A stretch of 64,000 bases of DNA from Cyanidioschyzon merolae (Eukaryota): assembly GCA_000091205.1 (NCBI GenBank), contig AP006502.2. One strand, given 5' to 3'. The notes below the pieces were generated by a model. It made no database searches. It was not told the origin of the DNA and saw nothing but the letters and a program-made list of their open reading frames with translations. Positions 1-40,385 of the stretch are shown piece by piece. The translations under genes and the position numbers were made by a program. Each line of letters begins with the position of its first letter. Position 1 is the stretch's first letter.

Positions 1-1291
1 GCTCTAGCGTGGATCCCTCCGATTCAGAGGCGTGCTCCTCAGCAGCTAACGCTGTCTCACTATAGTATTGCTTACCACCCGAGAGCGTAGCGAGCATCCG
101 CAAGAGTCCCGACGCGGCATCGATGTCGCCAGCAGTGCGCGCCTGGCGTTCTTCCATGGCGGGCCAGTGTGCGCGTGGCACGTAGACGCGACTGCGGTCT
201 TCCAGATGACACGTCCGTAGGCCTACCTCGATCGCAATGACCCAACTGAGCGCTTTACCCCAACCACAACTGTAAAGATGAGGCTGGTCAAGGGCTTCCT
301 CGCAGGGGTCTGCATGGATCCAGGTCTCCCTCGATTCGCTCCAAAACTCTGTCCAAATATGATCTTCAAAGTCGAAGACGAGTCGAACACGAGGCACCGA
401 GCACGCACAGAGGGCTAACGCAAACGCCTGGGCCCATTCTCCGCATCGGCCGCGTCGGCTTTCGGTAAGTAAAAACAGCGCGTCATTGTACCGGGGAAAG
501 CGTACGAGCGCCCCGCAACCTCGCTCGTCCGTGGGACACTCGTAGACCTCTACGCGCTCAGCTGCATGCAAAGCTTCACTGGCGGCCGGCAGGTCTACGC
601 CTTTCAAGCGAAGTGTGCGTATTCCACAGTGCTCACAGGGCGGGCTGTCCACCCACTGGAAGTGTTCTCGCTTGAACCAGTGCAGTGCCTCTCGTACAAC
701 AGCCGCAGTAAAGCAGATGTCCGCCAACGGAAGAGCATCCCCTGCTGCCGGCTGGTTATCGACCCCAATACCGGGTTCAGTTTGGGAGCGTGCTAATTGA
801 GAAAAATGGCTTTCTGCCGACTGTTCAAAGCGCTGCACTGGTACAACGCCGCTAGCTCGGGCAGCTTCGACTTTCTGAGCGTCAAGGCGGCTGGCTTGCA
901 CCCAGTGTTGCAGTATGCGGAACAGGAATGTGAGACACTTTGTCGCTGATTCTCCGCGTTTAAGCAGCAACAGGCAGGAGCGAAAAGGTCCTCGGGTGCG
1001 ACGCGCTAGTTCAGCGTGCGACTCTGCCAGCGCGCCTAGGACTGGGAGCAGCTCTTCGACGCTATGACCGCCGTCTGCACGCACTTCTGTGCCGACTTTC
1101 AAAGGCATATCCAGAGCATCGCACCAGAAAATCCAGCACAGGTGCTGCGCACTGGGCTCGATCCCTGATAAACGTTGGAGCTCGGTTCGCCAGCACGCCA
1201 GGGAAGTCGTTTCACCGATCTCTGCCCGTGAGAAAGTATAGCACATCGTCTTGCACCATACACCCAACGTTCCGTCGTCATCGTGCGCCAT
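1..1291 (-). CDS. peptide:N-glycanase (PNGase, transglutaminase-fold), 3' end truncated by the window edge
   Basis: I translated the reverse strand by hand: a stop-free frame runs from the candidate ATG at 1291-1289 to position 1. It contains FQWVDSPPCEHCG..RFPRYNDALFLLTESRRGRCGEWAQAF...DFEDHIWTEFWSE..WIHADPCE, the PNGase catalytic Cys/His/Asp core. The ORF track omits it because there is no stop inside the window. Confidence 0.7.
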   Translation of the reverse strand, partial: MAHDDDGTLGVWCKTMCYTFSRAEIGETTSLACWRTELQRLSGIEPSAQHLCWIFWCDALDMPLKVGTEVRADGGHSVEELLPVLGALAESHAELARRTRGPFRSCLLLLKRGESATKCLTFLFRILQHWVQASRLDAQKVEAARASGVVPVQRFEQSAESHFSQLARSQTEPGIGVDNQPAAGDALPLADICFTAAVVREALHWFKREHFQWVDSPPCEHCGIRTLRLKGVDLPAASEALHAAERVEVYECPTDERGCGALVRFPRYNDALFLLTESRRGRCGEWAQAFALALCACSVPRVRLVFDFEDHIWTEFWSESRETWIHADPCEEALDQPHLYSCGWGKALSWVIAIEVGLRTCHLEDRSRVYVPRAHWPAMEERQARTAGDIDAASGLLRMLATLSGGKQYYSETALAAEEHASESEGSTLE

Positions 1292-2146
1292 TTCGGACCA
1301 CCGGTTTACACCCTCGAGCAGTTGTTTCTGTTCCACGCTTGAAACGGAAAGGAAGCGTGCATGGAACTGGCGTAGAATTGAAGCCCGTCGCGCAAACGTT
1401 GCTGCGCGCACCGTTGAGACGCACACGGTCAACGGACGCGTTCGTGCTGGAGGCATTCGAACGGAACATATCCGGTGGTGCGCGTGATTGCCTTCAGAAA
1501 GGAAGCATACAAGGGTCCTGCGATCCCCGGGCGGGTGCCGAAGTGCAGTCCCAGCACCGGACGCAATATGGATCGAAAATGCAGGGACTTGCTGGCGTCT
1601 TTCCCGCATTCCGCTAGAGACGCTTGCACATCTAGCAGCGCCCAGAAATATCTGCTGGCTATGAAAAAGGTTGCGGAAACGGAACTGTAAGCGCGGGGGC
1701 GTTACTGCAGGAGTTCCAAGTGGTGCAACCCAGGCGCCCAGTTTGCAGCGGAACTCTGCAACCGCATCCCGCCGTCATGGCGAACAAGCACACAGCTTGC
1801 GCCAAGCAGACGCACATGATCGATACTTTCTCTCGCACACGACGCAAAGGATATGCATTCGACACGTATTCCGAGTTTCCTATTCCGTGGGCGATGCGTC
1901 TCCAGTACGTGTTGGCGCGTGAACGCTCCGCGTCGGCTGTCAGTACGGATCGTAGTGCTGGATGCTGGAGGCGAAGCGTCTCCATCGCACGTTTTTGAAA
2001 GCCTGCACGCATGCCGGGAGGCAGCGCGCATGCGTGCGCGCGCACGCATCGCATCGCAGCGCGCGCACGCATCCAAATCCTCCGTGCTCGTTCAAGCTCG
2101 TCTTGGGGTTGAGGATCCGCTTTTACGACAACGCAGAGAGGAACCT

Positions 2147-3433
2147 ATGTCAGTCCAACTACGCACAGCGGAGACATACGCAACACGAAGTAATAGTCAA
2201 CAGAGCTTGCTGAGAAATAGTGAGGGCGTGCAGTTCCCGCGCCGCTGCAGCGACCAGCAACTCTTGTTTCGGCAGTGTGGCTATCCGCCGTCGCTCGGGG
2301 CGAGCACAGCGGGCGTCGGTCAGAAGAGAGAGCGGTCCAACGAAGCTACGCTTACTGATTTGCTGGAGAGGGAACTGCTCCAGCGTCCAGTCGCGCGCCC
2401 TTTTGCTCGCATTCGGCGGCAGCGCGGGCACCCGAACGACGCAACGCCAGCGCAAACCCGTCGCCTCCATATGGACGGCGTGAGTCGGTTAGGTTCGCCA
2501 GCGCCCCAGCGCGTCGAGACACCGACGGAGCTCGAAAGCTGGTTGCACTCTGCGTTGAGGCCGAAAGAGGTAACCGCCTCTATCGGAGATCAGGCGGCCT
2601 CGGAGCCCGTTGGCGAGGCCCAAGTCCCCAGCATCCGTCGATTGCTGAGACTCGCTTCCCAACCGCAGCTCTCGAAGCATGCGTCGCCAAACGGGCAGCC
2701 TCGGGCTGACTCTTCTGCCCTAACGCCAAACGCAGCTGCGCAGCAACAATCACCCGGCAGTACCTCCTCACATGAATCGCCTTCATCGTTCGATTCAATT
2801 GATGAACAGGCATGCATGGGGGCGCTATTGCGAGCATCCTTAGATCCACAACGAGCGCAGCGCCTTTTAGAGTGTGGTGCTGTACAGTACCTCGTACAGA
2901 AACTTCGAGATTCCACGAATTCCCAGGTAGTGACGCAGATAGCGGCCGCGCTGGTGAACCTCGATCCCGCGACTACCCCAGTTCCGGGGCTTGCGCAGGC
3001 GCTCAGCAAAAAGCTCTCTCTGCTGACGTCTGAATGTTCCGAGCGGTTGATGCTCTACACCCTTGGAGACGGCTCGAAACCAGTCCTTAGTCGAGTTGAG
3101 ATCGACACACTTGCGCGGCACGCGCTCGCTTCACTGCCGCGGCATCTTGTCTTGCTGCGGCGACTGGCGGAGCTGAGTGCTGGCGGAGCGAACGGCCACG
3201 CCACCTTCTGGAACCATGCCGCGGTTCAACTGATCGAAAAGCTGAAGCCGGCAACAGCCGCGCAGGCAGAGCATCTCCTTGCGATCTTACAAACCATCCC
3301 CCTGGCCTGCATACAAAACAAGCGAGCAGCATTCGCCAACCATATTGTCATCCACATCGCTTCGCGCTTTCCCGATCAGAATAGTGTCCAACGAGCCGCT
3401 GTGGAACTGCTCGGAAAAATTGCTGCTGCCTAG
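2147..3433 (+). CDS. hypothetical helical-repeat (ARM/FAST-like) protein
   Basis: This is the C-terminal part of ORF 1853..3433. It includes LLECGAVQYLVQKLRDSTNSQVVTQIAAALVNL (armadillo-like) and a protein-like C-terminus. The region 1853-2146 is Arg-rich and probably a spurious N-terminal extension, so I placed the start at the in-frame ATG at 2147. Confidence 0.4.
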   Translation: MSVQLRTAETYATRSNSQQSLLRNSEGVQFPRRCSDQQLLFRQCGYPPSLGASTAGVGQKRERSNEATLTDLLERELLQRPVARPFARIRRQRGHPNDATPAQTRRLHMDGVSRLGSPAPQRVETPTELESWLHSALRPKEVTASIGDQAASEPVGEAQVPSIRRLLRLASQPQLSKHASPNGQPRADSSALTPNAAAQQQSPGSTSSHESPSSFDSIDEQACMGALLRASLDPQRAQRLLECGAVQYLVQKLRDSTNSQVVTQIAAALVNLDPATTPVPGLAQALSKKLSLLTSECSERLMLYTLGDGSKPVLSRVEIDTLARHALASLPRHLVLLRRLAELSAGGANGHATFWNHAAVQLIEKLKPATAAQAEHLLAILQTIPLACIQNKRAAFANHIVIHIASRFPDQNSVQRAAVELLGKIAAA

Positions 3434-6859: not shown

Positions 6860-9454
6860 GACCGCCGCATACAGCGCTGCACTGGCCGTTGGTCGGATGG
6901 TGGCGGAGGCGATGGCGGATATGCTGCGGCGCTTTACATGTCGACAGATTCCCAGGATTTCAAAGACCCGGAAGGCAACACGTTCAAAGTTCGTTGCTAT
7001 GAAGCATGAGCTTTCGAAAGCGGGTTACGAAAGGTAACTCGCGTCGGGCATACCGTTCCCTTGCGGGCGAAGCGCACGTCGGCAGCGGGCGACAGCCCCG
7101 CACGCTTCACAGCGCCGAGCCCCTGCCTGAAAGAGCGTCCGCTGCGCTCGGGCGTCGCTACCCAGCAGTAAGTTCGCAGAGTAGGCCTGCACGTGCTGCA
7201 TAGTGACCGGAGCCCGTTTCCAGCAATACTTTGCGCGACTCGCAGACCATGGTTCACCGACTTGAGGTAGGCTTGCATCAGCGGTCTTCCCGTTCGCAGG
7301 CGAAACTGCACTGAGCTGCTCGTTCACCTTGAAAGGTCGCGATTGGCAAGCACGGTACAATGCAGAACATTGAGGGGGAACGGTACCGCATGTGCAAAGT
7401 GCTCACATCGATCAGCGTGCGGAACGATATGTACATCCATTTTCACGCGATACCTATCAACCATCATCATGGTTTGGCTTCTGGTGCCTCCAGACCAAAT
7501 CCCGTGCTCAGAGGATCGCGCTTCTTTCGACGCATGCTGGTGCACTCGCCCGAGGACAGCGGGAACAGCAAACGCATGTCGCCGCAGTGCATATACGCTG
7601 GATGGACGACCACTCGCTTTCGAGCAGTCGACGCTCGCGAGTATTCAGCAAACGTCTTCATCATGACGATGTCGCAGTTCCGAGGAATACGCTGTGACAC
7701 AGCGGCCGGTGTCGCGTTCCTGGCATCCCGCTCCCTTGTTGGCGCTCGTGCGTCCGCATGTGCACCGAAGGACGCACCAGTGCGCGTCTACGCATTCGGG
7801 GTACCAGCTGCGTTGCGACGCCACCGAAAACTCGCGAGTACGCGAAGCTTTGCTGGACGCACACCCTAGTATTGCTCAAAACGAGCACCAAGTAGAGCAG
7901 CACCTGCCCATGGAGTTGGTACGACAACAATGTCGTGCGTGGTAACCGAGCATTCAGGTGCTGAAGCGCGCAAACCCTTCACAACCGAAAATACCACCGT
8001 CATCGCGAGCGTCTCGCAGACAGTGCAGGAGGCGACGCGTACAACCAGGTCGCCTTGTAGGAGGCCTCCCTGGGCCGCTGGTGACCCAGCCTCTACCTGC
8101 ACCACCTTTGCGAACGGTCTCAGGTTCGACTGACCCAGACTCGTCTCAGTCCAGTCTGAGCTTTGTGCTGGCTGGTTGTCTCCGGGGCGGTGTTCCCGGC
8201 TCGAGGCAGTCCGCACCGCTGGTGCGCTCTCCACGACTCGTGACGCAGACGCTGTAGACGGTGCGGTTTGCGTGTGTGCTGGCCCGCTTGGAAGCATCTC
8301 CGGAAGCAGCCTTCCAGTTTCTTTCATTATCAGATAATAGTCGGTTTGCAGGCGCACGAGACGTTGCCAATACTGGCGGATCTGGTGTACATCGCAGTCC
8401 GAACGGGGGAAGCCGTCCTCGTGAACGAGTGGATCTCGCACCCCGGCAGGCGTGGCTTCTAAGCAGGATACCAAGTGTTCAATGTCACGCACGAATTCTT
8501 CTTACTGTAGGGCTAGCGCTAGTAGGCGCTGTACGCTGTCGGAGGTCATTTGTTCGACGTCTCAGACAGGCGAACGACGGCGCGTAGCTCCAGGCGTTGC
8601 CCCGGGAACCTTTACGGACGAGGTCGTTTACGAGGCTCAGCGTCCGAAGACCATAAAACGAAAGTATCATCGGAACTTGGCTCGAAAGGAATCTGGGCAG
8701 AGTGCTGACGCTGTATACGATTTTTGAATGACGACAACAACAGCGACAACCGGCCTCATGGCATGGTCAGAAATCGGGACTGTCGAGCAGTGGGACGCAC
8801 GAAAACCGCACAATTCAAACCAGTTTCTCATTCCAGCGTCTGTGCAGAATGGACTGCAAGAAACGGGAATAAACGTGCATCCGTAGTCGGGAAGACTGCG
8901 GCGCATAGTTTGTTTACGATCAATAAAACGAACGAAATTCCTGTTGAGTAGGGTGATGCATACCTCGCCCGCACAAGCGTAAGATACTACAATGGCTACG
9001 CTTTTGATACAGGCGTCGAGGGGTATCGTGCCAGGCCCCTGCATCCCCTTGTCTGTCAGGGCGGTACTGCGATGGGCAGTAGCGTCGGCACCAGCGACAG
9101 AACCTATAGCAAGAGTTCATTCTACGTGAGTTTCCGATGTACAATACGTTGTTTTGGCTGCAGTGCACCGGTGAGAGCACGCATGTGCCAATGCGGGGTG
9201 TCGGACACGTGTCCTTCATCGATCGGTGCAGCGTCTCGCGCGGTGCACGCATCGCGCTCAGTGCGCGCACCTAGGAGATCAGGCAGGCGTGAGACACGAC
9301 GCGCATGCCGCCGTTGAAGGGAAACGTAATCGTAATCCGTAGCGTCTAGCTCTCGTGTAAAAGTTGTATTTTCATTGACTTCATGGGCAAGTGTAGTTTT
9401 CAGTTCAATTGTGTTTGAAAACTCAAACAAGTGTATTCTAGTGTTTTGTCGCAG

Positions 9455-9462
9455 TATATAAG
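9455..9462 (+). promoter_or_regulatory. TATA box (TATATAAG) about 53 bp upstream of the Fanzor-like ATG
   Basis: Canonical eukaryotic TATA in gcagTATATAAGagg. It is followed by an A-rich leader, and the ATG is at 9515. Confidence 0.4.
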
Positions 9463-9514
9463 AGGAGCGTTCAAAGAGGGTTCTTTTTCAAAAAAAAACT
9501 AAACAAGGAAAGTT

Positions 9515-11801
9515 ATGAAAAAGCAAGTCGACGATCCAGGAGGCCCAGTGTCGCCGGCTGCCAGAAAGAAAAAACAAAACACAGTGCCGAGTCCAGAAGA
9601 AGAGGAGAAGAAAAAGAAGCAAAAGGAGGAGGCTCTACGTCGAGTGCTGCAAGAAAGACAACTGTACGACGAGATGGTTGTGAAAGCTGGTCTTCTTGGA
9701 TATATCAAGGATCCCTACAGGGAAAAGTTCCGAGGCGCTATCAGAAAACGTGTCGATTCGTACTCCAAGAGTACTGTCAAGGCGTCGTCAGGACTGATGC
9801 ACTCGGCGAGGGAGATGTATCGCGACGTGACGTACATGGAAACAGTCGAGGTCCCAGACGAGTTGTTCGACACGACCTTTATTCGATACTTGATGCTCGG
9901 TACCGGGGAGATGCGAAGGGAAAATGAGCGAGTGCACGCCCTCTGCCAAAAATACTCCTTCTACAGCTTCGAGGGTACTCGAAACAAGGGTGACTCGTGC
10001 ATTTACGAATACGGAGCGATAAAGTACCCCACGAACCTGAATAAACATTTGACCGTGAACCTCGAACGTTTCATGATACGCGCCGTGTTTGCACTCTACC
10101 CGGGCATCTCTCGCAAAGCGATATGGATCATCATCGATAGCATCAAAAACGATAGTAAGAATGAACAGGAGATCGAACTTGTTCACGAGAAGACATCATG
10201 CAGGAAAACGAATGAAGCTTCTGTAATCCGTGCGGCTATACAAGAGCACCGTGCAGCACTGGGGCTGGCGAGTCCAGCAGAAAAGATATCAGAGTTGAAA
10301 AAAGATAAGAAAAGATACGATCGCCCTGTCCTGCGCTATTCCATATTCCTGAACGGAGAACTGGAACGCAGGGCCGATATGGAGCACGGTGTGGAAGCAA
10401 ATGCAGTGCCGGAGAAACGGGAAGCTGCGCTTCTGGCGAGGCATTTCAACGTCGTTCGGTTACGCGAGATCAAGTCCCATTTGTGACGATCGACTCCACA
10501 GTCTTTCAGGACATCATGAAGGAGATCTGTCCGGATTTCGATGTCAGCAGGGAGGTGTTCTCCGGTGAAAACCGGGAGACGTTTGAAATCGAAGATATTC
10601 TGCTTCGATTTCAAACGCCTCAAAGTGAGCAAGCAAAAGCTATCCGCGGGGATGATCGAAACCGATGGCGTAGCCATGTGTGTTGACTATCGGCGGTTGA
10701 AAAGCGATCGTCCTGGCCCGTCTTCGATATTGCCCGTGACGAAGCATGAAGATGAGAAGGAGGCGGGTCCTGCGACGCAGGAGGTGGAGGATAACGGCTT
10801 TATCGTTGGCGCGGTGAAGCATGATGAAAACAAGAAGGCGGATCCTGCCACGCAGAAAGCGCAGGATAACGACTTTGTCGTTGGCGCGGACCCTGGGAAC
10901 ACGAATATCATAGCCATCGCAGTACCGAAGCGTGCGGAATATGGTCACGACGGTAACTTGCGCCAGAAGGACATGCGTCTGTCGAGATTCTCGACAGCGA
11001 GATACCATTGAGAATCCAGTATAATGAATGTGAGGAAGAAAATCGAGACATGGAATCCAGGAATGAAAGAGCATCTGGAAGCGATGAGCGAGGTGACGAG
11101 TCGCGGAGCGGACTGTAAAGCTTTTCGGAATTTCATGGAAGTTCGTGTTGCGCATTGGGATGCACTGTGGGAGGAGTATACAAAGCCCTGGTGGGATCGT
11201 CTACGTATTAATCTATACTGTCGGAAGCAAGGTGCATTCAAGAAAATTTTCGATGAGTTCAGCGCCTTGAAGGAGGATGAAAGTCAGAGGCTCGCATTAG
11301 CGTACGGAGCAGGGCGCTGGGCTCCGAAAAAAGGGTGTACACCAGCTCCAACTACAAGAACATACAAGGAGTGCGCAAGGCGTTTCGCTACGATACCTGC
11401 AGATGAGTTCCGAACATCGTATACACACCATGGACTGGGGTGCACATTTCAAAAGGTCGAGATGGGAAAGTGTTAACGGAGCCCTGAAGATATCAAAAAA
11501 GTACGGACCGCTGACAGAAGAGCAAATGGAAAGAAAAGCGAATGTTCGAGGGCTATTCGCATTAGTAAGTACAACCAATGGCAAGAAACTTATGCGATTC
11601 CTGTATCGCGACTTTGAGGCCGCTATCAATATAAGGGCATGTGCGGTGCTGGAGCATAGACCTCCAGAGTTGACACGAGAGAATTTTATGGGGCAACCTG
11701 TCAAAGTGGGACTATATGAGAAAACTATGAAACCAGTAGCAGGTGGCCGGTCGAGAGAAACTGGGAGGCGTCTGCAGCTCAGTTGGCGACTTCGTGTCTA
11801 G
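9515..11801 (+). pseudogene. Fanzor/TnpB-like RuvC nuclease (OMEGA family), disrupted
   Basis: The N-terminus is Lys-rich (KKKQN..EEEEKKKKQKEE) and NLS-like. RuvC-I is VVGADPGNTNIIAIAV at about 10881-10930. A TS..C zinc-finger region (DEFRTSYTHHGLGC) follows. RuvC-III is RDFEAAINIRA at about 11607-11640, matching the TnpB RDxNAAxNI signature. The reading frame is broken by stops at 10484-86 and 11009-11 and by frame shifts near 10480, 10630 and 11400-11476. Confidence 0.7.
10741..10890 (+). repeat. 75-bp direct tandem duplication inside the Fanzor-like ORF, just upstream of RuvC-I
   Basis: Unit 1 is 10741-10815 (gaagcatgaagatgagaagg...cgttggcgcggt) and unit 2 is 10816-10890. They encode HEDEKEAGPATQEVEDNGFIVGAV and KHDENKKADPATQKAQDNDFVVGAD. 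The duplication is in-frame and present in both element copies. Confidence 0.6.
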
Positions 11802-11818
11802 GGCGCGGGTCACGCGCC
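11802..11818 (+). other. GC stem-loop (GGCGCG-ggtca-CGCGCC) immediately after the Fanzor-like stop codon, near the right end of the element
   Basis: A perfect 6-bp inverted repeat with a 5-nt loop, read directly. It is conserved in copy 2 at 40240-40256. Its position at the 3' end of the nuclease ORF is where TnpB/Fanzor guide-RNA scaffolds and IS605-type end hairpins lie. Confidence 0.35.
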
Positions 11819-11963
11819 ACTACTGTACACCGGTGGCGTCGTTCGACTCTCGAACGGCGTTTGGTACGTGAGGAACAAGTTACCGGCCTCTGATGCGTGC
11901 TTCGCTTCAAGCCTCGGGTGACAAAGTCGTTTTCATCAGGACTGTACCGTTTCTTTCTTTCGT

Positions 11964-12917
11964 TTGGTTTGCGGATCGTGCGGAATGACCGCGCTCTGGG
12001 AGGAAGCTTTTGGCTCAGGGGTCTGGGCAGCGCTCATTGCCATGCTCGTGTGTGCGCTTATAGAGCGCTTCGGTGGCGCGGTCGGCGGTGTTCTGGCTAC
12101 TGTACCGGGCACCATTACACCAGCGTCGATTGGTATGTGGCTTGCGCGGAAGGATGTGGTGTCGTTTCGATCCAGTATGGCGTCTGCACCGGTGGGGCTG
12201 CTCGTGAACGCCGGCTTTTTGACGTTCTGGCGATATCTGCCCTACTGGGTTGAGCGCCTCCATCTGCGTCGCTCTGTGCAGTTGCTGCTACTGGTGGGCG
12301 GCTCACTCACACTCTGGGCGCTGCTAGCAATCCCAGTGATGGTTCTGGTGTCGTGGCTGCGTCATCGAGAGCAGATGCTCATTCTCTATGCGCTCGGCAC
12401 TGGAAGCGCATTGCTGGTGCTCGTAGTCGGTGTCGCTGGGACGTGGCACACGCCCAAGAGCACCAGCAGGGCCAGCGGTATTCCATGGTGGATGCATCCG
12501 GTGCGAGCCTTGCTGGCGTTCTTTGTGGTGACCGCTGCGGTGTGGCTATCGCATCAATGGCCAGCGCTCGCTGGGATTTTAGCGGTGTGGCCGGCTGTCT
12601 TCCTCACCACCATGGTTGCACTCTGGTGGAGCCATGGAGGTGATTTCCAAACGAGTGCCGCATTTCCCATGATCCTTGGACTTTGGGCACCTATGTTATT
12701 TTGTGGACTTGTTTGCTTTTTATATCCTCGTTTTGATGTAAGCATTGGTTGTATCTTGTCGTGGCTGCTTGCAGTGGCGCTTGGCACGATTCCTCTCGCA
12801 GGGTACATCCGCTGGCGCCAAGCGGCAGTCACGCTAGAGCATTTCCCTGTGAATCTACGTACCGCTGAGGATCTTTTCGTTGAGAACGCTCCTGAAAGTT
12901 CACAGTCATTGGCGTAG
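11964..12917 (+). CDS. hypothetical multi-pass membrane protein
   Basis: ORF of 317 aa, almost entirely hydrophobic helices (AALIAMLVCALI, LLLLVGGSLTLWALLAIPVMVLV, ALLAFFVVTAAVWL). I recognise no family motif. The ATG at 11975 is a possible start. Confidence 0.4.
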   Translation: MVCGSCGMTALWEEAFGSGVWAALIAMLVCALIERFGGAVGGVLATVPGTITPASIGMWLARKDVVSFRSSMASAPVGLLVNAGFLTFWRYLPYWVERLHLRRSVQLLLLVGGSLTLWALLAIPVMVLVSWLRHREQMLILYALGTGSALLVLVVGVAGTWHTPKSTSRASGIPWWMHPVRALLAFFVVTAAVWLSHQWPALAGILAVWPAVFLTTMVALWWSHGGDFQTSAAFPMILGLWAPMLFCGLVCFLYPRFDVSIGCILSWLLAVALGTIPLAGYIRWRQAAVTLEHFPVNLRTAEDLFVENAPESSQSLA

Positions 12918-13952
12918 ATGAAGCGTTTTCCTGTGCAACAACGGGATGCTGAGGATCCTATCGAAGAGATCGCAGCCAACCGCTCACAAGCGTTTGCGTA
13001 AACGCAGTCCTTGCGCCATATCGGTCGCCGAGGTTGATCCAGCGTTTACGTACAGCGTTCTGTCCATTCATTTGCTTTCGATCAAACGATGTAGTTGCAT
13101 ATGAATCACATGTGACATGCAGTTGGGAGAAGCGGAATGGCACACGGGCTCCCGTGTATCGTACTAGGATGCAAACGCATGTGCAATGTGTGTGTGTGTG
13201 TCTGTGTAAAAGGGAAGTCTTGAATCGGCTGCAATCCACGGATGAATTCACACCACGCTTTGAGAGTTTTCTGTCAAGATCTGGGTTTCCCTGACCATTT
13301 GTGAGCTCTCGTGATGGAACAAAGCTGTTTTTGGATATAGAACGTGTTTATCGAGGACATTTTCCATGGATATCAGGTGATATTCAGAACAGGGGATTCT
13401 ACAATGCCTGTACCAGCATAACTTGTTTGTTTTAGGTGTATTATCGCTGGTATTCGATAAATTAAATGAATTTATCGTGTAGATTGGAGAAAGGTCGCGT
13501 AAATACTTGATGATGTGACTGGTAGTTTGCGAACAACGGCCTTGCATGTACGCATCAGTCACACCACATTCAGCAGGTGTGTGAATCACGCGCCTCGTAG
13601 ACCTTCCAATGAACGTCGTGTACCCGAAACAGAAGTTATCAAACGATATCCACGCGATTGTCTCGTATTCAATGTATTCCCGTATAGAATCCCACTGAGA
13701 AATTCGATTAGTGAAGCCACCGGACGTGAACTATTCGCACTGTTGACATGGACGGCGTTGAATAGACATGGATGGATAAAGGAGAAAGCACGCTTGGATG
13801 CCAAACCGTCTCGTGTTCAAAAGTGCACTGTCGATTTCGCAGTCAACCGATGACGCCGCTTTCAGGTTGGAAAGATGCTCGTTTCACTCGATGAGATTTC
13901 AGTCGGGAGACATGGCAGACTTGTATGTAGACATTGAAAGAGAGGTAAACCG

Positions 13953-15885
13953 CTGTTCGTAAGGAGGAGACGAGCGAGCATGCCGATATCATCCGTTCGC
14001 GGGCGATTCAATCGTACGATCGCCTAAACAGGTAACACAATACGCAGGACCTAACAGCACCTCATCCTTCGTCGAGGCACTCGTCGGGTTTCCCGCTTCC
14101 TATGATGTTCCGTGCTGCTTTCAGGAAACGCTGGTTTCCATCACTCAGAATCTGCCAAGGAGTATGCAACTGAGGCTGGCATTGAGCCGCTCTTCGTGCC
14201 CGCCTATTCTTTCTGGCTCACTCCGATTGAGGGCGTTCCCTCTGTTCCCGAACGCCATTGTTACGTTAACGGATCATTAGACGGGTCACTCGCTTCTACG
14301 ACACCGTTCTTTGAGGAATCGTTCTCTGCACTCAACAATCCTGAGCCGCTGTGTTGCTTTTCTGCTCGTTGGCGGGATGCGGTGGAGGCGCGCGCTTCGG
14401 TCTGTGGGTGTTCGCGCTACGGAAAACGCCATGAAAAGGCACCTGAGACAGCACAGATCCATGGAGACATAGAAGGAGCGAGTTCCGGAGCCACCGTCTA
14501 CCCAGTGCCTCTGGAATCCGACGAGAAAGCGTACATAGCGTACAGCGACGATACCCATGACTCCCCGCCATGTCAAGGACACGGCGATGGAAGAGCTGGT
14601 CTCCGCGGGCAAGTACGCAGCATTCGAACAACTCTGCGAAGGGCAATCAGGAACGCGCCCAGGTTTTCTTGCCTACAGGGATAGGCTGAAGGAAATGTAC
14701 ACGGGCGACAGACGCTGATGGAATATCAATCAGCACGCACTTTGTGAAGCCGGGACCTCTGTCGCGACATTGGACGCATGCCCGAGCCCTCACAGTAGAG
14801 GAAGCGAAGCGAACGCTTTGTGGCGGGCGTGGATCCCGCGTCGAAGAACATCACATTCATCGCCGTATCGCTAGATATAGCGGACGCAACCAAAGACCTG
14901 ACCTGAAACCAGGTGAAGCCGTTTAACTTTCCCACTACGCGATTTCATTGGGATTCGGGTACGGTGGAAGTCCGGAGGTATCCGAACATCTGGAACGACA
15001 AGGTCGGAACCGATCCCGATGCACCGAGCACCGTACGGAGCAGAGGCGAATGCTTCGTGCGCTTCATTCAGGAAGTACGCGAGTGTCGAAATGAACCATA
15101 TGGGCGGTTGCTGGCAGGATAACCTGGGATCACGCTGAACTCGGCAACGGTATCGGTAGAACGTAGACACGACTCGCGCATTCGCCACTTCCCTCAACGG
15201 GCCGGAAACCCAGGTGATCTCAAAGTCGTGTCGTTTGGTGATACAAGTCAATGGCCTTAGACGTGATGCAATGCCCAGAAGCCCGCACTCCCGGTCAAAC
15301 GGCCAGACCGAACAACGAGTCCAGGAATCGAGTATCTGCGAGACCCATCGATGCGTTCAGCACGACATGTGTACGCATCACGAGCATGCGGGCCCGCTGA
15401 ATCTGGTAGAAAGAAGAGCGCGACACATAGACGGATGCACGAGAAGGTGCACAGTGAGGTGACTGAGCGTCAAATGGCGAGGCGGTTGCAGGTGGGAAAC
15501 GTGCTATGGTGTGATTCCAAAAGGCATTCATGTGCGCTGGGGCACGCCCCGCATTGAGCACTGAACGTGTCGAACGGCAACCGATGATGACCCGCGCTTC
15601 CGGAGCGTCCAGCTGCTTTGTATGGCGCGAATGTTCAAGCGAATCGTTTCATAGCTCGTGTAGGCACTGTGGAAAATGCGGAGCACGTTCGAGAGCGTAA
15701 AATTAGGGTGCCGGAGAGAAGGCACTGGATTCTCGCCTGGATCCAGGCAGTCGTGTAGACCGGTTCAGCAATCCATCAAGGCTGGGTCACCTTGTTTAGA
15801 GATAAACCAGGGCGGATTTCCCTTTGGGAGACTGGTGAAACAACAAGGGATACGATTCCTCGACATTGCAGGGTATACATGAAGA
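13953..15885 (+). mobile_element. Repeat family B copy 1: 1.9-kb interspersed repeat containing a Tc1/mariner-type transposase C-terminal fragment
   Basis: Co-linear with 30454-32386 at an offset of 16501 bp. Paired ORFs are near-identical and the flanks are unrelated. Confidence 0.65.
14106..14684 (+). pseudogene. DDE transposase tail (Tc1/mariner/IS630-like), 5'-truncated and degenerate
   Basis: LLSGNAGFHHSESAKEYATEAGIEPLFVPAYSFWLTPIEG aligns with the mariner ..DNAxxHxs..vkefl...gi..l.wPaYSPDLNPIE block, including the third catalytic E. The DDE residues upstream are absent: the repeat begins only about 150 bp upstream. Confidence 0.5.
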
Positions 15886-20322: not shown

Positions 20323-20464
20323 GCAGCGTGCGCCTCAGGGTCACACAAAGTTCGCATCTTGACTTCATTGTCTAGTTTCTTGGGAGCATACTGCAACACG
20401 CTGCTCTGTGCACGCCGGAGCGCATGGCAGGGACCCTGCTGTCGAGAACGCTTCTCATCCAAAA

Positions 20465-20640
20465 GTCCGTAAATATACGAGGGAAATCGATCCAGCTGCA
20501 GTATCAGTGCATCACCACTATTCCCGAGGTATCCCGAGCATCGCAACGTATATCCCAGAGTCCGTAAATATACGAGGGAAATCGATCCAGCTGCAGTATC
20601 AGTGCATCACCACTATTCCCGAGGTATCCCGAGCATCGCA
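20465..20640. repeat. Two tandem copies of an 81-bp unit (period 95 bp) in the region downstream of the BASS gene
   Basis: gtccgtaaatatacgagggaaatcgatccagctgcagtatcagtgcatcaccactattcccgaggtatcccgagcatcgca occurs at 20465-20545 and again at 20560-20640. Confidence 0.85.
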
Positions 20641-23410: not shown

Positions 23411-25798
23411 GCAGGTAAATTCGCACATTTTGACAATTCCAAGGGACTGGAGCATCGCCTTCGTATATCGATGCACATGTATCCCAGATTTCAAAGTCTT
23501 GCTTCATGGCGGGCATTTTTCGTTGCGGTAGTTCACGCTTCCGTCGAAAGCGCCGTATCCGAGGCGTCTACGTCGAACAACGCAAAGTGTCGCGGCACAC
23601 ACTGCACTGCAAAGCTGCATTATCACGCGAATCCGAGTTTTTTTTTCTGTTGCCAGAACGTTTCCATTCACCAGGGATTCCCGCTTGCGCGATGGATATT
23701 AGCATTCGGCATCGCAGCAGACGCTCCCGCGCTTGACTCCAGGCTCGATCACATATACCTTATCTCGCAGATCGAAGTCGTTTTTCACGCTCTACCGTGC
23801 GCCAAGTGCCTGACGTGAGCGTCTGCGCCAACAACGGTAGCGCCGGTGCGGTCACAGCATGGCGACAACACCGCATGGTCATTCCAAGGAGCGCTTCGGC
23901 TCGAGGCGTGCCTCACCTGACCCAGCGTCTTGGCTCATTAGCGATTTGTGCTCGCAACCAAGTGCCATATCGCTCGCGTAGCGGCAGTTTCGCCCCACCC
24001 GTATCAGTTTACAATGGAACATGAAAGTGCTTGCTCCGTTCCTGGCAGGCAACTGTTTTCGTACTCTGTTTAGAAATGCGGCTTCAGGATGCCAAGTGCA
24101 GCAACAAGGGCTTTCGGATTCATGGAGAGTTTCGGGATTACCGCTCGTTTCTTCCGAATGGATCCTTCGATGCTCTCCCGGTAGCATTCGTGACATCACC
24201 GGAATCGAGATGATCCGCGAGGCAATCGAACAGGGATTTGCAAAACCTAACCATATTACGATCCAATTCATATGTACGCGTTTGCACGCGTCTACTTTCC
24301 TAACATGTAGCATACTCCAATCAATGGTGCTTGGTGTTTTCGATCTATCTATTGCGAGGCAACTCGTGGAGGTAGCCATTCACGTGGCTGGTTTGACGAG
24401 GAAACCTACTCGACGCCGTTTCCCCGGCGACGTTTTCTCCCAGCTCATGCCCAAAGTTCGCTGAACTTGGAAGTTCAGATACTCGATTCCTTTCGAAAGA
24501 CAAATGCTTTTCTTTTTGAAGTCATCGACGGAGCGTCATTCAACAGTAGCGTGATACCTGCCAAGGGGTGCGCTCCCAGAGGCTTACGTCTCTCCTGCTT
24601 GTATGGAAAAAGGTCTTGGACTCGGACTCGAGTCATCGCAGCGAACTGTCCCAGTCGAGCATAAGTCAGCGCTTTGCGGGAAGCGAGCGTAGACAGATCG
24701 GCATTTCTGGACCAGTTCTCCGGACTGGATTTTCCCTCTGGCACTCGTTTCACCCTGGGCAACTTCGCGTTTCACTCATTTTCTATCGAACCGGCCGCAT
24801 GCGTCTGCGTGTGTAGCGAACAGTGTACGCTCGCGGCGGATCAACCAGAAGGAGCTCGGCATCGTGAGGTACGGCAACTGACCCGGAAATCGAGCTTGGC
24901 ATCGAGGATAACCCTTTGTATCTGTCAAGGGCATGTACTGAGCAATCAAGCGAGCGTTTACGCGGCAAAGGGCAATAAACAAAAGACGAGGTGTCGTGGA
25001 CGTATTCGACCGCCTGACCACATCCAAGTGTCACCGCTGCAAATGGCGCCCCTGCGTTGCATATACTGAAGAGACAAATGGCGATCGACGCGTGCATCGC
25101 CAATATCGTCTGTTCAGGAAATGCGTAGAAAAATGCCGAAAGCCGGTAAGTGAGACCCTCACCACTGCCATCAACACCCTTCGACTGCATGCAACGGATT
25201 CGGAAGCAAACAAGAGACCAGCGTGTTCCAAGCTCCGAGACCTGTAATAGGAAAAGGAAGCAGTCACTGAAAAAGCTCCCATTGGCTGGAATTCATAGAA
25301 GTGCACTGAGAAGCCAACGTTGGCACGTGCACCCGAGTTACAGAGAACCCGATCGACTTTATCCTGAATTGGATGTAGCGGAAACGCGTCCCAAACTTCA
25401 GCAACAAGCGTCCTGACCTCCGTTCAGCAGACGCTTCATGACACACAGTCGTGCGCAAGATACGCACGTCGGCATACGCATGGGCCTTATGAGCATCATC
25501 CCACACGGAACGACAGTTGCTAGACATGTGTCCTCGCGATGATCCACAATGATGCTCAGGTTGGCGTATATAGTGCGTCTGTTTGCTTCATGAACTGGTG
25601 CGCTTCGGAAATCGGTGTCGTTTGCCATCGCATGAATGCAGTTCTCCGCTTAATGAATCGTGACTCGACAAGCCGAATTTCATGTCGAGCGGTTATTCTC
25701 AAAGCGCCCTTGGCTGGTACCAGCGACCGGTGTCCGTAAAATGCTCGAGTCCGCATGAGCGTTTCCCTGCAGGTCTGAATACACCTGTGGTGCGGGTA

Positions 25799-26656: not shown

Positions 26657-27816
26657 GGCGCTTTCGAACCTGCGCCTCTACCCTGTAAGTCTACCACGCG
26701 TTGCAGTGCAACAGCGTCAAACGTCAATGTCTTATGAAGCAACGTCGCCGAACGCTGCCGGTCAGGCGGTACGCGTCACTGCGAAAAGTGAATCCTCATG
26801 TGAGGCGCACCTGCTCCGTGCATCTACGGGGTCGTTTCTATGAAGCAGTTTTTCGGACGAGAATGTTCATTGGGGATGCCGTCGACTAGGTCATTAGGGT
26901 CCTGCCACCAAAGGCAGTGTATATTGTCCACTCTGGTGTCAGGAAGAAAGCTGCACCTTTTTACAGACCGCCGCTTCTAGGTGGACCTACCATTCTTGAG
27001 CGGCGTTTGCGGATATAGAACGCAAAGCCGGCACCGGACCGCATGCTGACTGAACCAAGAAGCTCGTTTATGGACACCAAAGACACACGTTCTACCTCCC
27101 GGGTGGTAGGTCCCGCGAACCGAATGAGCACACAGGTCTAGCGTGTCGTGCACCTGCTCACTTGTTGGTATCGAGCCAAGGCCTGCATCACGAACTGGCG
27201 ACGCAGTTCATGCATGGTGGCGAAGGTAGCGTTCAGTGCCCGGATATTCGTGCTACTTGCCGGATTCGCTCCACGATTCGCACCACACACTGGCAAGCCT
27301 GTACATGTCGAGCGTCGGAGCAGAAACGAACCACGAGACCTGACCTCGCCTCGAGTCGACGTACTCCATGGCATGGTAACGCAGTGCCAACTCCGTGTTG
27401 TGTCCGTACCGATCATACAGGTGCTGCGGCGGGTGCTCGCAGCAGGCACTCGACGCTCCGCGAAAACCTACGAACGGACTAGTACCGCCCGGGAAAAGGA
27501 CGTCCAGCGGCTAATCGAACGCGGATCTCGGGTCTGGAAAGAAGGACGCTTTCCCGAATGCCGGTATACACAGAGTCATCAATCTAGGATCCTTCGTCCG
27601 TGTAAACGTGATGTCCTTGGAAACAGGTTACCAGGTCTGACTGCCTGCAAGCACTCCAGAGTACTAGCGGCACTGAGCGGCAACTGGCGTGGAGGCTTCG
27701 GATGCGCTTCCCGGGGTGCATCGCTCGATTCACCGATCGCTGGTAAATGGATCACCCTGACTTGTGCGTAACTGGAACCTTCTAAATATCATTATTGGGA
27801 GGCAAGCGTTCCCCTT

Positions 27817-29715: not shown

Positions 29716-30453
29716 CGGTAGCGTCTTGTCGTGGTATGCGGCGTTGCCTCGACTCGTTGTGCGCAGATGCCTTGCGAATATAGGAGCTCAGTGTCAGCGG
29801 AGTTCGGCTGATGGTGAGGCTACGATGCTGCCACGTTTTGGCGTGACAGCAGAAGGAACGGACGCAGCATCGCGCGTGCTGCTGGATTCCGAGCTGTGAA
29901 CTCTGGAACACCTGTGCCAGCACCCCCGTTTCATTTTGGATCGTTTGTCTCCCCGCAATTCAACAGCAGGATTTGTATCCTGTAGACGGCAGGGAGGTTG
30001 CCGAAAATCGTTATACTGTCACTGCAAGCATTCGAAAAAAATGACGTTGACGAGTACGTCATGTTGCTCTCAGCAGGTGATTGAACTTGTCTTCTCGTTG
30101 TGTTCATTCGGAAGGTTGTGTATTCATGCTAGAACTTTCCATAGTCTATCCACACAAATGTCTCTTCGTGAGTTGATTTCAGCGCGTAGTTTCTCTGAGA
30201 TTTACAACCGGAGTACCCAGAAGATAAGAATTTTTCACACGGGTGATCTGGACGGTGTCAAAGAGACAATGATAAACACAGAAAAGAAGCGCGCTTCTGT
30301 CAGCGACGGCCTCCGGTTCAGCAATACGACATCGAGCACGCACTGAAACGCAAACCCGAATGATAGTTGGCACTGGTTTTCGCCTCAGTCGATGAGTCTT
30401 TATCGGGAATGACTGATTCATCTGTATACGGGTATTCAAAGGGAGACAACCTG

Positions 30454-32386
30454 CTGTTCGTAAGGAAGAGACGAGCGAGCATGCCGATATCATCCGTTTG
30501 CGGGCGATTCAATCGTACGATCGCCTAAACAGGTAACACAATACGCGGGACCTAACAGCACCTCATCCTTCATCGAGGCACTCGTCGGGTTTCCCGCTTC
30601 CTATGATGTTCCGTGCTGCTTTCAGGAAACGCTGGTTTCCATCACTCAGAATCTGCCAAGGAGTATGCAACTGAGGCTGGCATTGAGCCGCTCTTCGTGC
30701 CCGCCTATTCTTTCTGGCTCACTCCGATTGAGGGCGCTCCCTCTGTTCCCGAACGCCATTGTTACGTTAACGGATCATTAGACGGGTCACTCGCTTCTGC
30801 GACACCGTTCTTTGAGGAATCGTTCTCTGCACTCAACAATCCTGAGCCGCTGTGTTGCTTTTCTGCTCGTTGGCGGGATGGGGTGCAAGCGCGCGCTTCG
30901 GTCTGTGGGTGTTCGCGCTACGGAAAACGCCATGAAAAGGCACCTGAGACAGCACAGATCCATGGAGACATAGAAGGAGCGAGTTCCGGAGCCACCGTCT
31001 ACCCAGTGCCTCTGGAATCCGACGAGAAAGCGTACATAGCGTACAGCGACGATACCCATGACTCCCCGCCATGTCAAGGACACGGCGACGGAAGAGCTGG
31101 TCTCCGCGGGCAAGTACGCAGCATTCGAACAACTCTGCGAAGGGCAATCAGGAACGCGCCCAGGTTTTCTTGCCTACAGGGATAGGCTGAAGGAAATGTA
31201 CACGGGCGACAGACGCTGATGGAATATCAATCAGCACGCACTTTGTGAAGCCGGGACCTCTGTCGCGACATTGGACGCATGCCCGAGCCCTCACAGTAGA
31301 GGAAGCGAAGCGAACGACTTTGTGGCGGGCGTGGATCCCGCGTCGAAGAACATCGCATTCATCGCCGTATCGCTAGATATAGCGGACGCAACCAAAGACC
31401 TGACCTGAAAACAGGTGAAGCCGTTTAACTTTCCCACTACTCCATTTCATTGGGATTCGGGTACGGTGGAAGTCAGGAGGTATCCGAACATCTGGAACGA
31501 CAAGGTCGGAACCGATCCCGATGCACCGAGCACCGTACGGAGCAGAGGCGAATGCTTCGTGCGCTTCATTCAGGAAGTACGCGAGTGTCGAAATGAACCA
31601 TATGGGCGGTTGCTGGCAGGATAACCTGGGATCACGCTGAACTCGGCAACGGTATCGGTAGAACGTAGACACGACTCGCGCATTCGCCACTTCCCTCAAC
31701 GGGCCGGAAACCAGGTGATCTCAAAGTCGTGTCGTTTGGTGATGCAAGTCAATGGCATTAGACGTGCTGCAATGCCCAGAAGCCCGCACTCCCGGTCAAA
31801 CGGCCAGACCGAACAACGAGTCCAGGAATCGAGTATCTGCGAGACCCATCGATGCGTTCAGCACGACATGTGTACGCATCACGAGCATGCGGGACCGCTG
31901 AATCTGGTAGAAAGAAGAGCGCGACACATAGACGGATGCACGAGAAGGTGCACAGTGAGGTGACTGAGCGTCAAATGGCGAGGCAGTTGCAGGTGGGAAA
32001 CGTGCTATGGTGTGATTCCAAAAGGCGTTCATGTGCGCTGGGGCACGCTCCGCACTGAGCACTGAATGTGTCGAACGGCAGCCGATGATGACCCGCGCTT
32101 CCGGAGCGTCCAGCTGATTTGTATGGCGCGAATGTTCAAGCGAATCGTTTCATAGCTCGTGTAGGCACTGTGGAAAATGCGGAGCACGGTCGAGAGCGTA
32201 AAATTAGGGTGCCGGAGAGAAGGCACTGGATTCTCGCCTGGATCCAGGCAGTCGTGTAGACCGGTTCAGCAATCCATCAAGGCTGGGTCATCTTGTTTAG
32301 AGATAAACCAGGGCGGATTTCCCTTTGGGAGACTGGTGAAACATCAAGGGATACGATTCCTCGATATTGGTGGGTATTCTGGCAGG
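30454..32386 (+). mobile_element. Repeat family B copy 2
   Basis: Co-linear with 13953-15885 and carries the same transposase-tail ORF, here at 30613..31185. Confidence 0.65.
30607..31185 (+). pseudogene. DDE transposase tail (Tc1/mariner-like), copy 2
   Basis: 190-aa ORF near-identical to 14112..14684, with the same ..AYSFWLTPIEG motif. Confidence 0.5.
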
Positions 32387-33683
32387 ATCCCGCTGAGCGT
32401 CGAGCGCATGACGGCTTCTTTGAGGGTGTTTCCGCTTCGTTGTTCGCGTCATTGCTGCCCCGGCAAGTTCACTTAACCTTGCGCCACTGCACACCAGATA
32501 GCAGTCGGTGCCCCGTTGGAAGCGATGTGCGTGGTGCGTAAAACACAGAAGCCTCAGCTCCTGGACCCAGAAACGCTCACTAATGCGTAATAGAGGCCAG
32601 AGAAGCGACTAGCACTTCATCGCGCTCAACGCTTTTCTCTTTTCAAGATATCGATAAGGTGTTTCACGCAAACCAGTCGGAATGACATGCTACCCAGTGG
32701 GGAGAAGTGGCAATTGATGCTCGACACGGCTCCCGAACGCCACCTGGATCCGGTGATGTGAAACCAAGTGCCGGAGCGCGTCCTGATAGAAGTTGCATCA
32801 CATACCGATTGCGTTTCAGTTCAACGTATAGACGCACCTTGATAGCTCGTATCAGAATTCGTTCCATTCTAAAACGATGGCGTTACAGGTCGATGTATAA
32901 ACGCACCCTGATACCTCATATCGGTATACGCTCTTATCATGTAATCGTTGCACCATGGCTTCCCTTGTTGTCTCATTCTGGTTGCTTATGGTGCTCATGC
33001 TCATGTCTAGCGTCGCCAACCGACTTTAAAGTGCTCCAGTCTCGCCGACAAAAGTGTCACGGACTGAGGCGAGCATCAGACTCGGCGTAACCACGCTGCA
33101 AGACGTACCGAGTCGCGGAAACTCCATGGACCATTTCTCGTTCAACAGTGATGACAAGACGGTGACTCAGGCACCTCATGCGCGTGCTTTGCTCATGATG
33201 CCGCCCAAGCGTTCCGCAACGTTATCGGCGAACATCTAGGCAGTGCGGCCACTGGACCCAGCGCTGGCACCTTCCCCGCCGACCCCTGTCTCTGTACGAA
33301 ATGCATAGAAGTGCGGTTCGCTGGAAAGTATGCCATACACACACAAACGCCCCTTTACCGAAGCAGCAGTCGCCAACACGACTCGATACCTCGTGAAGCA
33401 CACATCCAAGTCTCGAAACGTCCGCACGAGGTTCGCAGTAAGCCGGTGTCCGTGTCCGGCACAGAGCCCGAAGTCTCGGCCACTGGAGCGTCAGGGGAAG
33501 CAGCCGCATCGACGTTGCGACCATGAAACCATCGGTGGTATGTGGACCTCCAAGCGACCTCCAGCATCGCGTCACGACGACGAGATGAGGTGAAACGAGC
33601 GCTGCAATCATGTGTATTTCGGAGACAAGAAAAATGGAAATGCGAGACGCGTTCGCAGCACTCCAGTTACCCCGTTTCCCGCT

Positions 33684-37893: not shown

Positions 37894-37901
37894 TATATAA
37901 G
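37894..37901 (+). promoter_or_regulatory. TATA box (TATATAAG) of Fanzor-like copy 2
   Basis: Same motif and spacing as in copy 1. Confidence 0.35.
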
Positions 37902-37955
37902 AGGAGCGTTCAAAGAGGGTTCTTTTTCAAAAAAAAAAACTAAACAAGGAAAGTT

Positions 37956-40239: not shown

Positions 40240-40385
40240 GGCGCGGGTCACGCGCCACTACTATACTTCCGACCGCAGCAACGTTTGGTGGGTGAAGGCA
40301 GCACGCCTCATTTCGAGTGCTGTGCTCGAGTTTATACCCCAGCTGCGGGAACTTTTGCGGATAGCCATTTCTCGCCAAGTGTCTC

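Follow-up and report, generated by a model that had tools for sequence, protein, structure and literature searches.

We analyzed a 64-kb stretch of chromosome 20 of the red alga Cyanidioschyzon merolae 10D (the window) and describe within it a decayed open reading frame (ORF), at positions 9515-11801, together with the mobile element that carries it. We consider it very probable, at roughly 95%, that this is an inactivated Fanzor1 ORF of the CMe-1 type, and that its second copy, near-identical and 28.4 kb downstream, would have arisen by segmental duplication or ectopic recombination and not by transposition. We discuss the identity of the element, its predicted catalytic residues, the decay and duplication of the two copies, and the features of the family that set it apart from characterized nucleases.

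Fanzor1 proteins are eukaryotic descendants of bacterial TnpB: single-RuvC, RNA-guided endonucleases that cut double-stranded DNA. The omegaRNA that they bind is transcribed from their own element, at its 3′ end, and they cleave guide-matching DNA beside a short target-adjacent motif (TAM). Such cleavage is presumed to favor the persistence or spread of the element. RNA-guided nuclease activity is established for SpuFz1 (Spizellomyces punctatus), GtFz1 (Guillardia theta), and PpFz1 (Parasitella parasitica).

The locus and its element

The window has a GC content of about 56% and holds long ORFs without introns, including those for zeta-carotene desaturase, ALB3/YidC, a BASS transporter, and methylcrotonyl-CoA carboxylase; four proteins of the window are exact matches to chromosome-20 proteins of C. 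merolae 10D (CMT069C and neighbors). The features central to this work are:

8794-11862 (+): copy 1, a decayed, non-autonomous element of the CMe-1 Fanzor1 type, delimited by blastn to the CMe-1A consensus, with the 3′ end taken from 58- and 42-copy alignments
9515-11801 (+): decayed Fanzor1 ORF of copy 1, 734 codons when projected on the consensus frame
37233-40300 (+): copy 2 of the same element, found by comparison with the consensus, with its ORF remnant at 37956-40239
6902-11828 (+): repeat A1, a 4.9-kb direct repeat; its partner A2, at 35341-40266, is 97.9% identical

Fanzor proteins were defined by Bao and Jurka (Mob DNA 2013; PMC3627910), who list CMe-1A as one Fanzor1 family of C. merolae, with a 3169-bp consensus and a 734-aa protein. 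They report approximately 150 copies, some still intact, with about 80% identity to the consensus for each copy; the element has no terminal inverted repeats (TIRs), its target site duplications (TSDs) could not be determined, and it was left unclassified (PMC3627910). The 5′ 635 bp of CMe-1A are 95% identical to another repeat, TE-N2_CMe (PMC3627910).

We took the CMe-1A consensus DNA and the CMe-1 protein from the supplements of that study (PMC3627910). By blastn, copy 1 (9253-11838) aligns with consensus positions 648-3145 and copy 2 with positions 648-3154, each at about 84% nucleotide identity; the aligned part 648-3145 makes up 79% of the consensus. The repaired copy-1 protein, projected on the consensus frame, is identical to the CMe-1 protein at 545 of 731 positions (75%) in a gap-free alignment, and tblastn of the published protein against the window returned E = 0. 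It follows from these protein and DNA matches that the finding is a copy of an already published Fanzor1 element: a Fanzor1 family has been known in C. merolae since 2013, and the copy is not new. The window copies are best filed as members of the CMe-1 family, sibling to subfamily CMe-1A. The element is a multi-copy eukaryotic one, present in C. merolae nuclear DNA and in 349 related metagenome stretches; 80 metagenome loci were fetched, and these are 82-89% identical to the consensus.

Membership in Fanzor1

The hand-repaired protein (761 aa) finds 33 homologues in a large protein collection, almost all from hot-spring-type metagenomes of the Joint Genome Institute (JGI), with the precomputed label PF26935 (DUF8286). 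Searched as a single sequence against Pfam and PDB sequences, the repaired ORF returned nothing relevant, and a 13-sequence profile had no match in the PDB. An exhaustive hidden Markov model search with a 10-sequence family alignment retrieved 4314 cluster representatives (50% identity) at E <= 1e-3, and a 73-sequence alignment of full-length family members was used for a PDB profile search and for a structure model.

Against all PDB sequences, the 73-sequence profile matches exactly 3 molecules, all of them Fanzor1: PpFz1 (E = 1e-25), SpuFz1 (1.2e-18), and GtFz1 (3.4e-15). The family of 4314 representatives is labelled only PF26935 "DUF8286", although it is demonstrably Fanzor1. The N-terminal half of the protein contributes to the PpFz1 match from profile position 134.

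The structural evidence comes from P0031, a 676-aa family member 37% identical to the window protein. Its AlphaFold2 model, built on the 73-sequence alignment, has a mean predicted local distance difference test score (pLDDT) of 90.3 and a predicted template modeling score (pTM) of 0.87; an earlier model from the 10-sequence alignment (pLDDT 63) was discarded. In a Foldseek search of the PDB, the top 7 matches of the P0031 model are all Fanzor1 structures, aligned over the whole chain (E ~1e-17 to 1e-15, template modeling [TM] scores 0.51-0.72); Cas12 variants and ISDra2 TnpB appear only at E 1e-4 to 1e-3. Through its alignment to the modeled P0031, the window protein is predicted to share the full-length WED/REC/RuvC/TNB fold of Fanzor1.

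An earlier note on this DNA, made by a reader who saw only the sequence, had recognized Fanzor from 3 short motifs across 2 reading frames. It proposed that the repaired ORF be aligned to known nucleases and that a predicted structure be compared with published ones. Both comparisons agree with its reading: the family profile matched Fanzor1 chains only in the PDB, with the catalytic Asp, Glu, and Asp in place, and the fold search led to the same proteins. The second copy that the note named as a guide for repair does exist. Its statement that the first 320 aa lack recognizable similarity does not hold: the N-terminal half aligns across the whole family, contains the nearly invariant motifs HF(V/I)TID and IETDGV, and joins both the profile and the fold matches.

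Descent from a prokaryotic TnpB of the IS200/IS605 or IS607 type, by horizontal transfer or contamination, is an alternative to which we give practically no weight. For the distant family member P0033, a match to Pfam Cas12f1-like_TNB (OrfB_Zn_ribbon) stays below threshold (E = 7e-4), and the fold search lists the TnpB structure 8h1j at E = 8e-4. Yet Fanzor1 accounts for all of the best matches, in sequence and in fold, with a lead of over 10 orders of magnitude, and the protein, about 730 aa long, has an N-terminal half of the Fanzor type. Pfam returned neither OrfB_IS605 nor OrfB_Zn_ribbon, nor any other match, for the repaired ORF, and the locus lies between intron-poor nuclear C. merolae genes, with no TnpA.

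Motif blocks and catalytic residues

Three sequence blocks carry the predicted active site. They read VVGADPGNTNIIAIAV (RuvC-I block, 10877-10924, + strand, frame 2), ADEFRTSYTHHGLGC (DEFRTS block, 11399-11443, + strand, frame 2), and LYRDFEAAINIRACAV (RuvC-III block, 11601-11648, + strand, frame 0, downstream of a +1 frameshift). The motifs within them, and a repeat that precedes the first, are:

10741-10889 (+): 25-aa unit KHExxKxAxPATQxVxDNxFxVGA, a 75-bp in-frame tandem duplication just before the RuvC-I strand, present in both window copies
10883-10897 (+): RuvC-I motif GADPG; predicted catalytic Asp codon 10889-10891, equivalent to CMe-1 D431 and SpuFz1 D383
11402-11419 (+): DEFRTS block; predicted RuvC-II Glu codon 11405-11407, equivalent to CMe-1 E603 and SpuFz1 E541
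11604-11633 (+): RuvC-III motif YRDFEAAINI; predicted catalytic Asp codon 11610-11612, equivalent to CMe-1 D672 and SpuFz1 D606

Residues D383, E541, and D606 were named as catalytic in SpuFz1 by Xu et al. 2024 (PMC11423790). In the HMMER alignment, the family columns "iDPGr", "dEFrTS", and "nRDlnAAlNI" align with D777, E935, and D1000 of a maltose-binding protein (MBP)-SpuFz1 fusion chain, which correspond to these 3 native residues. The window copy therefore carries Asp, Glu, and Asp at homologous positions. As judged from this alignment, the blocks are RuvC-I, RuvC-II, and RuvC-III, with the RuvC-II Glu inside DEFRTS and immediately before the TNB region. Chance similarity was considered as a source of the motifs and is ruled out by the tblastn result (E = 0) and the 545/731 identity to CMe-1.

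The canonical order of blocks claimed in the earlier note is borne out, as all 3 are present and map to the SpuFz1 residues. Its estimate of about 230 aa from RuvC-I to RuvC-III is close to the Asp-to-Asp distance, which is 241 aa in CMe-1 (D431 to D672) versus 223 aa in SpuFz1. The claim of a zinc finger after DEFRTS is half right: the position is correct, but the Cys ligands are missing, and the Glu of DEFRTS itself belongs to RuvC-II. Where SpuFz1 reads CPRC...C..NPNC after this block, CMe-1 reads YTHHELGC...LLALVSTTSD. Most of the 73 relatives keep a single Cys at the site, and only the distant P0033 keeps the Cys ligands. The position of the TNB domain and its beta-strands are still present in the P0031 model despite the missing ligands. 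The number of acidic 25-aa units before RuvC-I also varies: 1 in the CMe-1 consensus, 2 in the window, and at least 5 in P0001 and P0008.

Decay of the two copies

The interval 9515-11801 is not one ORF. The raw frame is open from 9515 to 10486, and the whole falls into pieces of 323, 156, 150, and 132 aa. The lesions of copy 1 are:

10480 (+): -1 frameshift, common to both copies
10576-10621 (+): 19-nt inverted duplication with an 8-nt spacer, net +7 nt, common to both copies; a reverse-strand match to consensus 1978-2003
11009-11011 (+): premature TGA (consensus CGA, Arg), copy 1 only
11474-11476 (+): premature TAA (consensus CAG, Gln), common to both copies
11494 (+): +1 frameshift, copy 1 only

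As a result of the first, the raw frame ends at the stop codon 10484-10486. The +7 lesion, whose counterpart in copy 2 lies at 39015-39060, creates an in-frame TAA at 10582 and brings back the original frame. RuvC-III stands in another frame because of the +1 frameshift at 11494. Private to copy 2 are a +1 frameshift at 38009 and TGA codons at 39118 and 39985. In total, copy 1 has 3 frameshifts and 3 stops, and copy 2 has 3 frameshifts and 4 stops.

The arms of the +7 lesion are 95% complementary; it is of the template-switch or fold-back type of mutation and leaves a palindrome within the dead ORF.

Neither copy has an intact ORF, and both belong to Fanzor1 only as pseudogenes. Codon differences from the consensus number 90 synonymous and 183 non-synonymous, counts that fit neutral decay following an earlier selected phase. 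Copy 1 is a pseudogene and cannot make protein; its catalytic Asp, Glu, and Asp codons survive only as sequence. Decay is widespread in the family: among the 80 loci, only 1-2 distinct ones hold a near full-length ORF with all 3 motifs, and nearly all are decayed. The CMe-1 family is largely a graveyard.

Could the gene be alive, with its frameshifts and stops explained by sequencing errors, introns, or programmed recoding, and its protein made? The catalytic codons and long ORF stretches are kept, and Bao and Jurka state that the genome retains some intact CMe-1A copies (PMC3627910). Nevertheless, we regard this as very improbable. There are 7 independent lesions; the shared ones recur in copy 2, and each copy adds private ones. 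An independently assembled metagenome contig, L075, agrees with the copy-2 element at 98.4% over its 3′ half, a comparison of overall identity and not of single lesions. The stops lie in the consensus frame and not at intron-like boundaries, non-synonymous changes exceed synonymous ones 2:1, and no protein from an NCBI-annotated genome is among the homologues found.

Proposed duplication with host DNA

Repeats A1 and A2 consist of about 1.9 kb of host DNA (6902-8793 in A1, not element sequence), with the element as their 3′ part. The host part contains one recognizable ORF:

7866-8492 (-): ORF with Nas2_N and PDZ domains (PSMD9-like, proteasome chaperone; Pfam E = 7e-15)

Its second copy, at 36305-36931 (-), differs by 4 aa. 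There is no ATG before codon 55, and the ORF may be truncated, mis-started, or a pseudogene. Among the fetched loci, segment 6902-8793 occurs only in L005, the orthologue of A2. The identity between A1 and A2 ends at 11828/40266, 34 bp before the element terminus.

The shared lesions, together with the adjoining 1.9 kb of host DNA, indicate that copy 2 was made after the death of the element and not by transposition. We infer that it arose by segmental duplication, or by ectopic recombination that used the element as homology; the crossover would have lain inside the 3′ region of the element.

A different origin can be pictured, in which the 2 copies are independent transpositions of a defective non-autonomous subfamily, and the 4.9-kb repeat is a mobile unit with a captured host gene fragment, mobilized in trans. 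The 5′ regions of the family are modular (TE-N2-type versus the type at 8794-9252), resembling the MCi-2 Fanzor elements, whose 5′ regions are variable (PMC3627910); the right edge of the repeat falls within about 35 bp of the element 3′ end; and the missing ATG start of the Nas2-like ORF could fit a captured fragment. Set against this, 6902-8793 has no other copy among the fetched loci than that in the A2 orthologue, the repeat stops 34 bp short of the terminus, the 2 termini differ, and neither TSDs nor TIRs were found. We consider independent transposition improbable, and prefer duplication or ectopic recombination.

Element ends and 5′ modules

The two ends of copy 1 differ in character:

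8794-9252 (+): alternative 5′ module, in place of the 647-bp TE-N2_CMe-like part of the consensus; found upstream of position 648 in 8 other loci
11802-11862 (+): conserved non-coding 3′ end with hairpins GGCGCG-GGTCA-CGCGCC and a terminal CGTTCGA-CTC-TCGAACG; candidate for the expected end of the omegaRNA scaffold

The module at 8794-9252 is 74-79% identical to the upstream region in L070, L068, L067, L059, L074, L027, L019, and L026, and resembles no part of consensus positions 1-647; both copies lack the TE-N2_CMe-like module. Since the 8794-9252 sequence recurs in 8 loci, the family has at least 2 alternative 5′ modules, and the 80 metagenome loci split into the same 2 classes. The 5′ end of the copy-1 element is probably truncated. 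Degenerate pieces at 23651-23940 (+) and 27349-27615 (-) match the first ~290 bp of the consensus, which belong to the TE-N2_CMe-like module missing from the Fanzor copies, at 67-69% identity.

At the other end, 42-58 aligned copies are conserved through ...CGCCACTACTGTACACCG.TGGCG.CGTTCGACTTTCGAACGGCGTT(T) and then diverge. Copy 1 terminates in ...GAACGGCGTTT, at 11862, and contigs L083-L085 and L087 confirm the junction of A1 with the downstream gene. Past 40266, copy 2 has a different terminal variant, ACTTCCGACCGCAGCAACGTTT..., which is also found in loci L053 and L055.

Contig L086 (JGI Ga0506604_005683) matches the window from 11884 on at 99.4%, with its junction 21 nt past the terminus at 11862. 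The 755 nt before that junction are AT-rich, with no match anywhere in the window or among the fetched loci. The contig is probably chimeric, the other option being an alternative haplotype.

The last part of the ORF and the 60 nt after the stop are well conserved over the 42-58 copies and contain the hairpins. Folding of the 3′ 300 nt gave a z of only -2.3.

Weighing the interpretation

Several observations weigh against a CMe-1-type Fanzor1 element copied by duplication. The CxxC...CxxC zinc ligands, characteristic of TnpB and of many Fanzors, are absent from CMe-1, from the window copies, and from most of the 73 relatives in the alignment, so that nuclease activity is putative even for intact members. 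A search around the element found no TIR, TSD, or transposase, and a search around repeat B, a second repeat pair in the window, found no TIR. The search for an omegaRNA added little: RNAalifold on 42 copies gave a weak consensus (-9 kcal/mol) with almost no covariation; 4 hand-picked hairpins, one of them mis-registered by one column, showed covariation not above that of shuffles; and an Rfam scan for omegaRNA was empty, as was a tRNA scan. Finally, A1 and A2 diverge by 2.83% in the element part versus 0.58% in the host part, a 5-fold difference, and the last 35-45 bp of the 2 elements are different subfamily variants; duplication alone explains neither.

The element part of A1/A2 shows no signature of repeat-induced point mutation or CpG decay (transition/transversion ratio 1.4, CpG observed/expected ~1.2). 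Contig L005 has a different CMe-1 variant, with no more than 84% identity, in place of the 3′ half of the orthologous element. Both the contrast in divergence and the L005 variant could reflect gene conversion among many copies; for L005, mis-assembly could also account for the variant.

Neighboring repeats

Repeat B is a pair at 13948-15876 and 30448-32377, 98.2% identical. It holds a remnant of a Tc1/mariner-type DDE_3 transposase (14112-14260, Pfam E = 1.4e-6), followed by a second Fanzor1-like relic (14799-15671), which belongs to a different lineage and is much more decayed, with a "GVDPA" RuvC-I remnant and a tblastn E of 6.5e-24 with P0031. The combination of transposase and relic resembles the Mariner-borne Fanzor1 elements of Bao and Jurka (PMC3627910). 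Contig L082 (JGI Ga0080006_1198901) joins 11672-15876 and 30448-36108 via a single B copy and omits the 14.6 kb between B1 and B2, with the BASS transporter and zeta-carotene desaturase genes; this contig represents either a true haplotype, with a 16.5-kb deletion by B1/B2 recombination, or a repeat collapsed in assembly. A 95-bp unit in 2 tandem copies, 98% identical, lies at 20457-20640, in the region beyond the BASS-transporter ORF.

Proposed mechanism and significance

The intact 734-aa CMe-1 protein would be an omegaRNA-guided, TAM-dependent, single-RuvC nuclease encoded by a mobile element. By analogy with characterized Fanzor1 proteins, intact relatives of CMe-1 would act by the same mechanism. 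Intact members, though rare, are present in thermoacidophilic Cyanidioschyzon populations; P0001 at locus L001 is one example.

We offer one further idea tentatively, and think it unlikely as it stands: that the CMe-1 clade is a distinct, zinc-ligand-free branch of Fanzor1, in which the TNB domain folds without a Cys4 site and RuvC-I stands behind an acidic 25-aa repeat of variable number. Intact members, if they were active, would then be RNA-guided nucleases adapted to heat and acid. Their elements, with swappable 5′ modules, a conserved 3′ terminal hairpin, and neither TIR, TSD, nor transposase, might move or spread by an undescribed route, possibly one based on recombination or homing. The mosaic A1, A2, and L005 copies hint at such a mode of spread.

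The locus itself matters little: it adds a further decayed copy to a transposon family already listed for this genome in 2013. What the analysis adds is the exact limits of the element, a lesion catalogue for 2 copies, a copy pair that we trace to duplication or recombination with host DNA, the alternative 5′ modules, and a lineage without zinc-binding cysteines.

Comparison with known systems

Bacterial TnpB (ISDra2, PDB 8H1J) and Cas12f share with the CMe-1 family a RuvC-plus-TNB core and a presumed RNA-guided mechanism, and their fold matches are weak but significant. The differences are larger: the protein here has about 730 aa versus about 400 aa, and TM scores reach only 0.22-0.38. TnpB is prokaryotic, has a TnpA partner and a canonical zinc ribbon, and places its Glu in a different sequence context, all unlike CMe-1.

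The characterized Fanzor1 proteins are much closer. SpuFz1 (PDB 8GKH/9CEU-9CEZ), GtFz1, and PpFz1 match the family model over the full-length fold, and the motifs TDGVS, DPG, DE(F/Y)(R/K)TS, and NRDxN are common to both sides. In contrast, sequence identity of the CMe-1 family to these proteins is only 12-16%, the CxxC...C..C zinc ligands that follow DEYKTS in SpuFz1 are missing from CMe-1, the variable acidic 25-aa repeat before RuvC-I is particular to CMe-1, and the window copy is dead.

The nearest known system is CMe-1A. Unlike its consensus, the window copies lack the 5′ 647 bp and have the ~460-bp module at 8794-9252 instead, carry one extra 25-aa tandem unit, and are pseudogenes embedded in a segmental duplication. 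In other respects they agree: the species is the same, TIRs, TSDs, and transposase are absent in both, nucleotide identity is at least about 80%, and the divergence of the window copies from the consensus fits the "approximately 80%" of the original authors.

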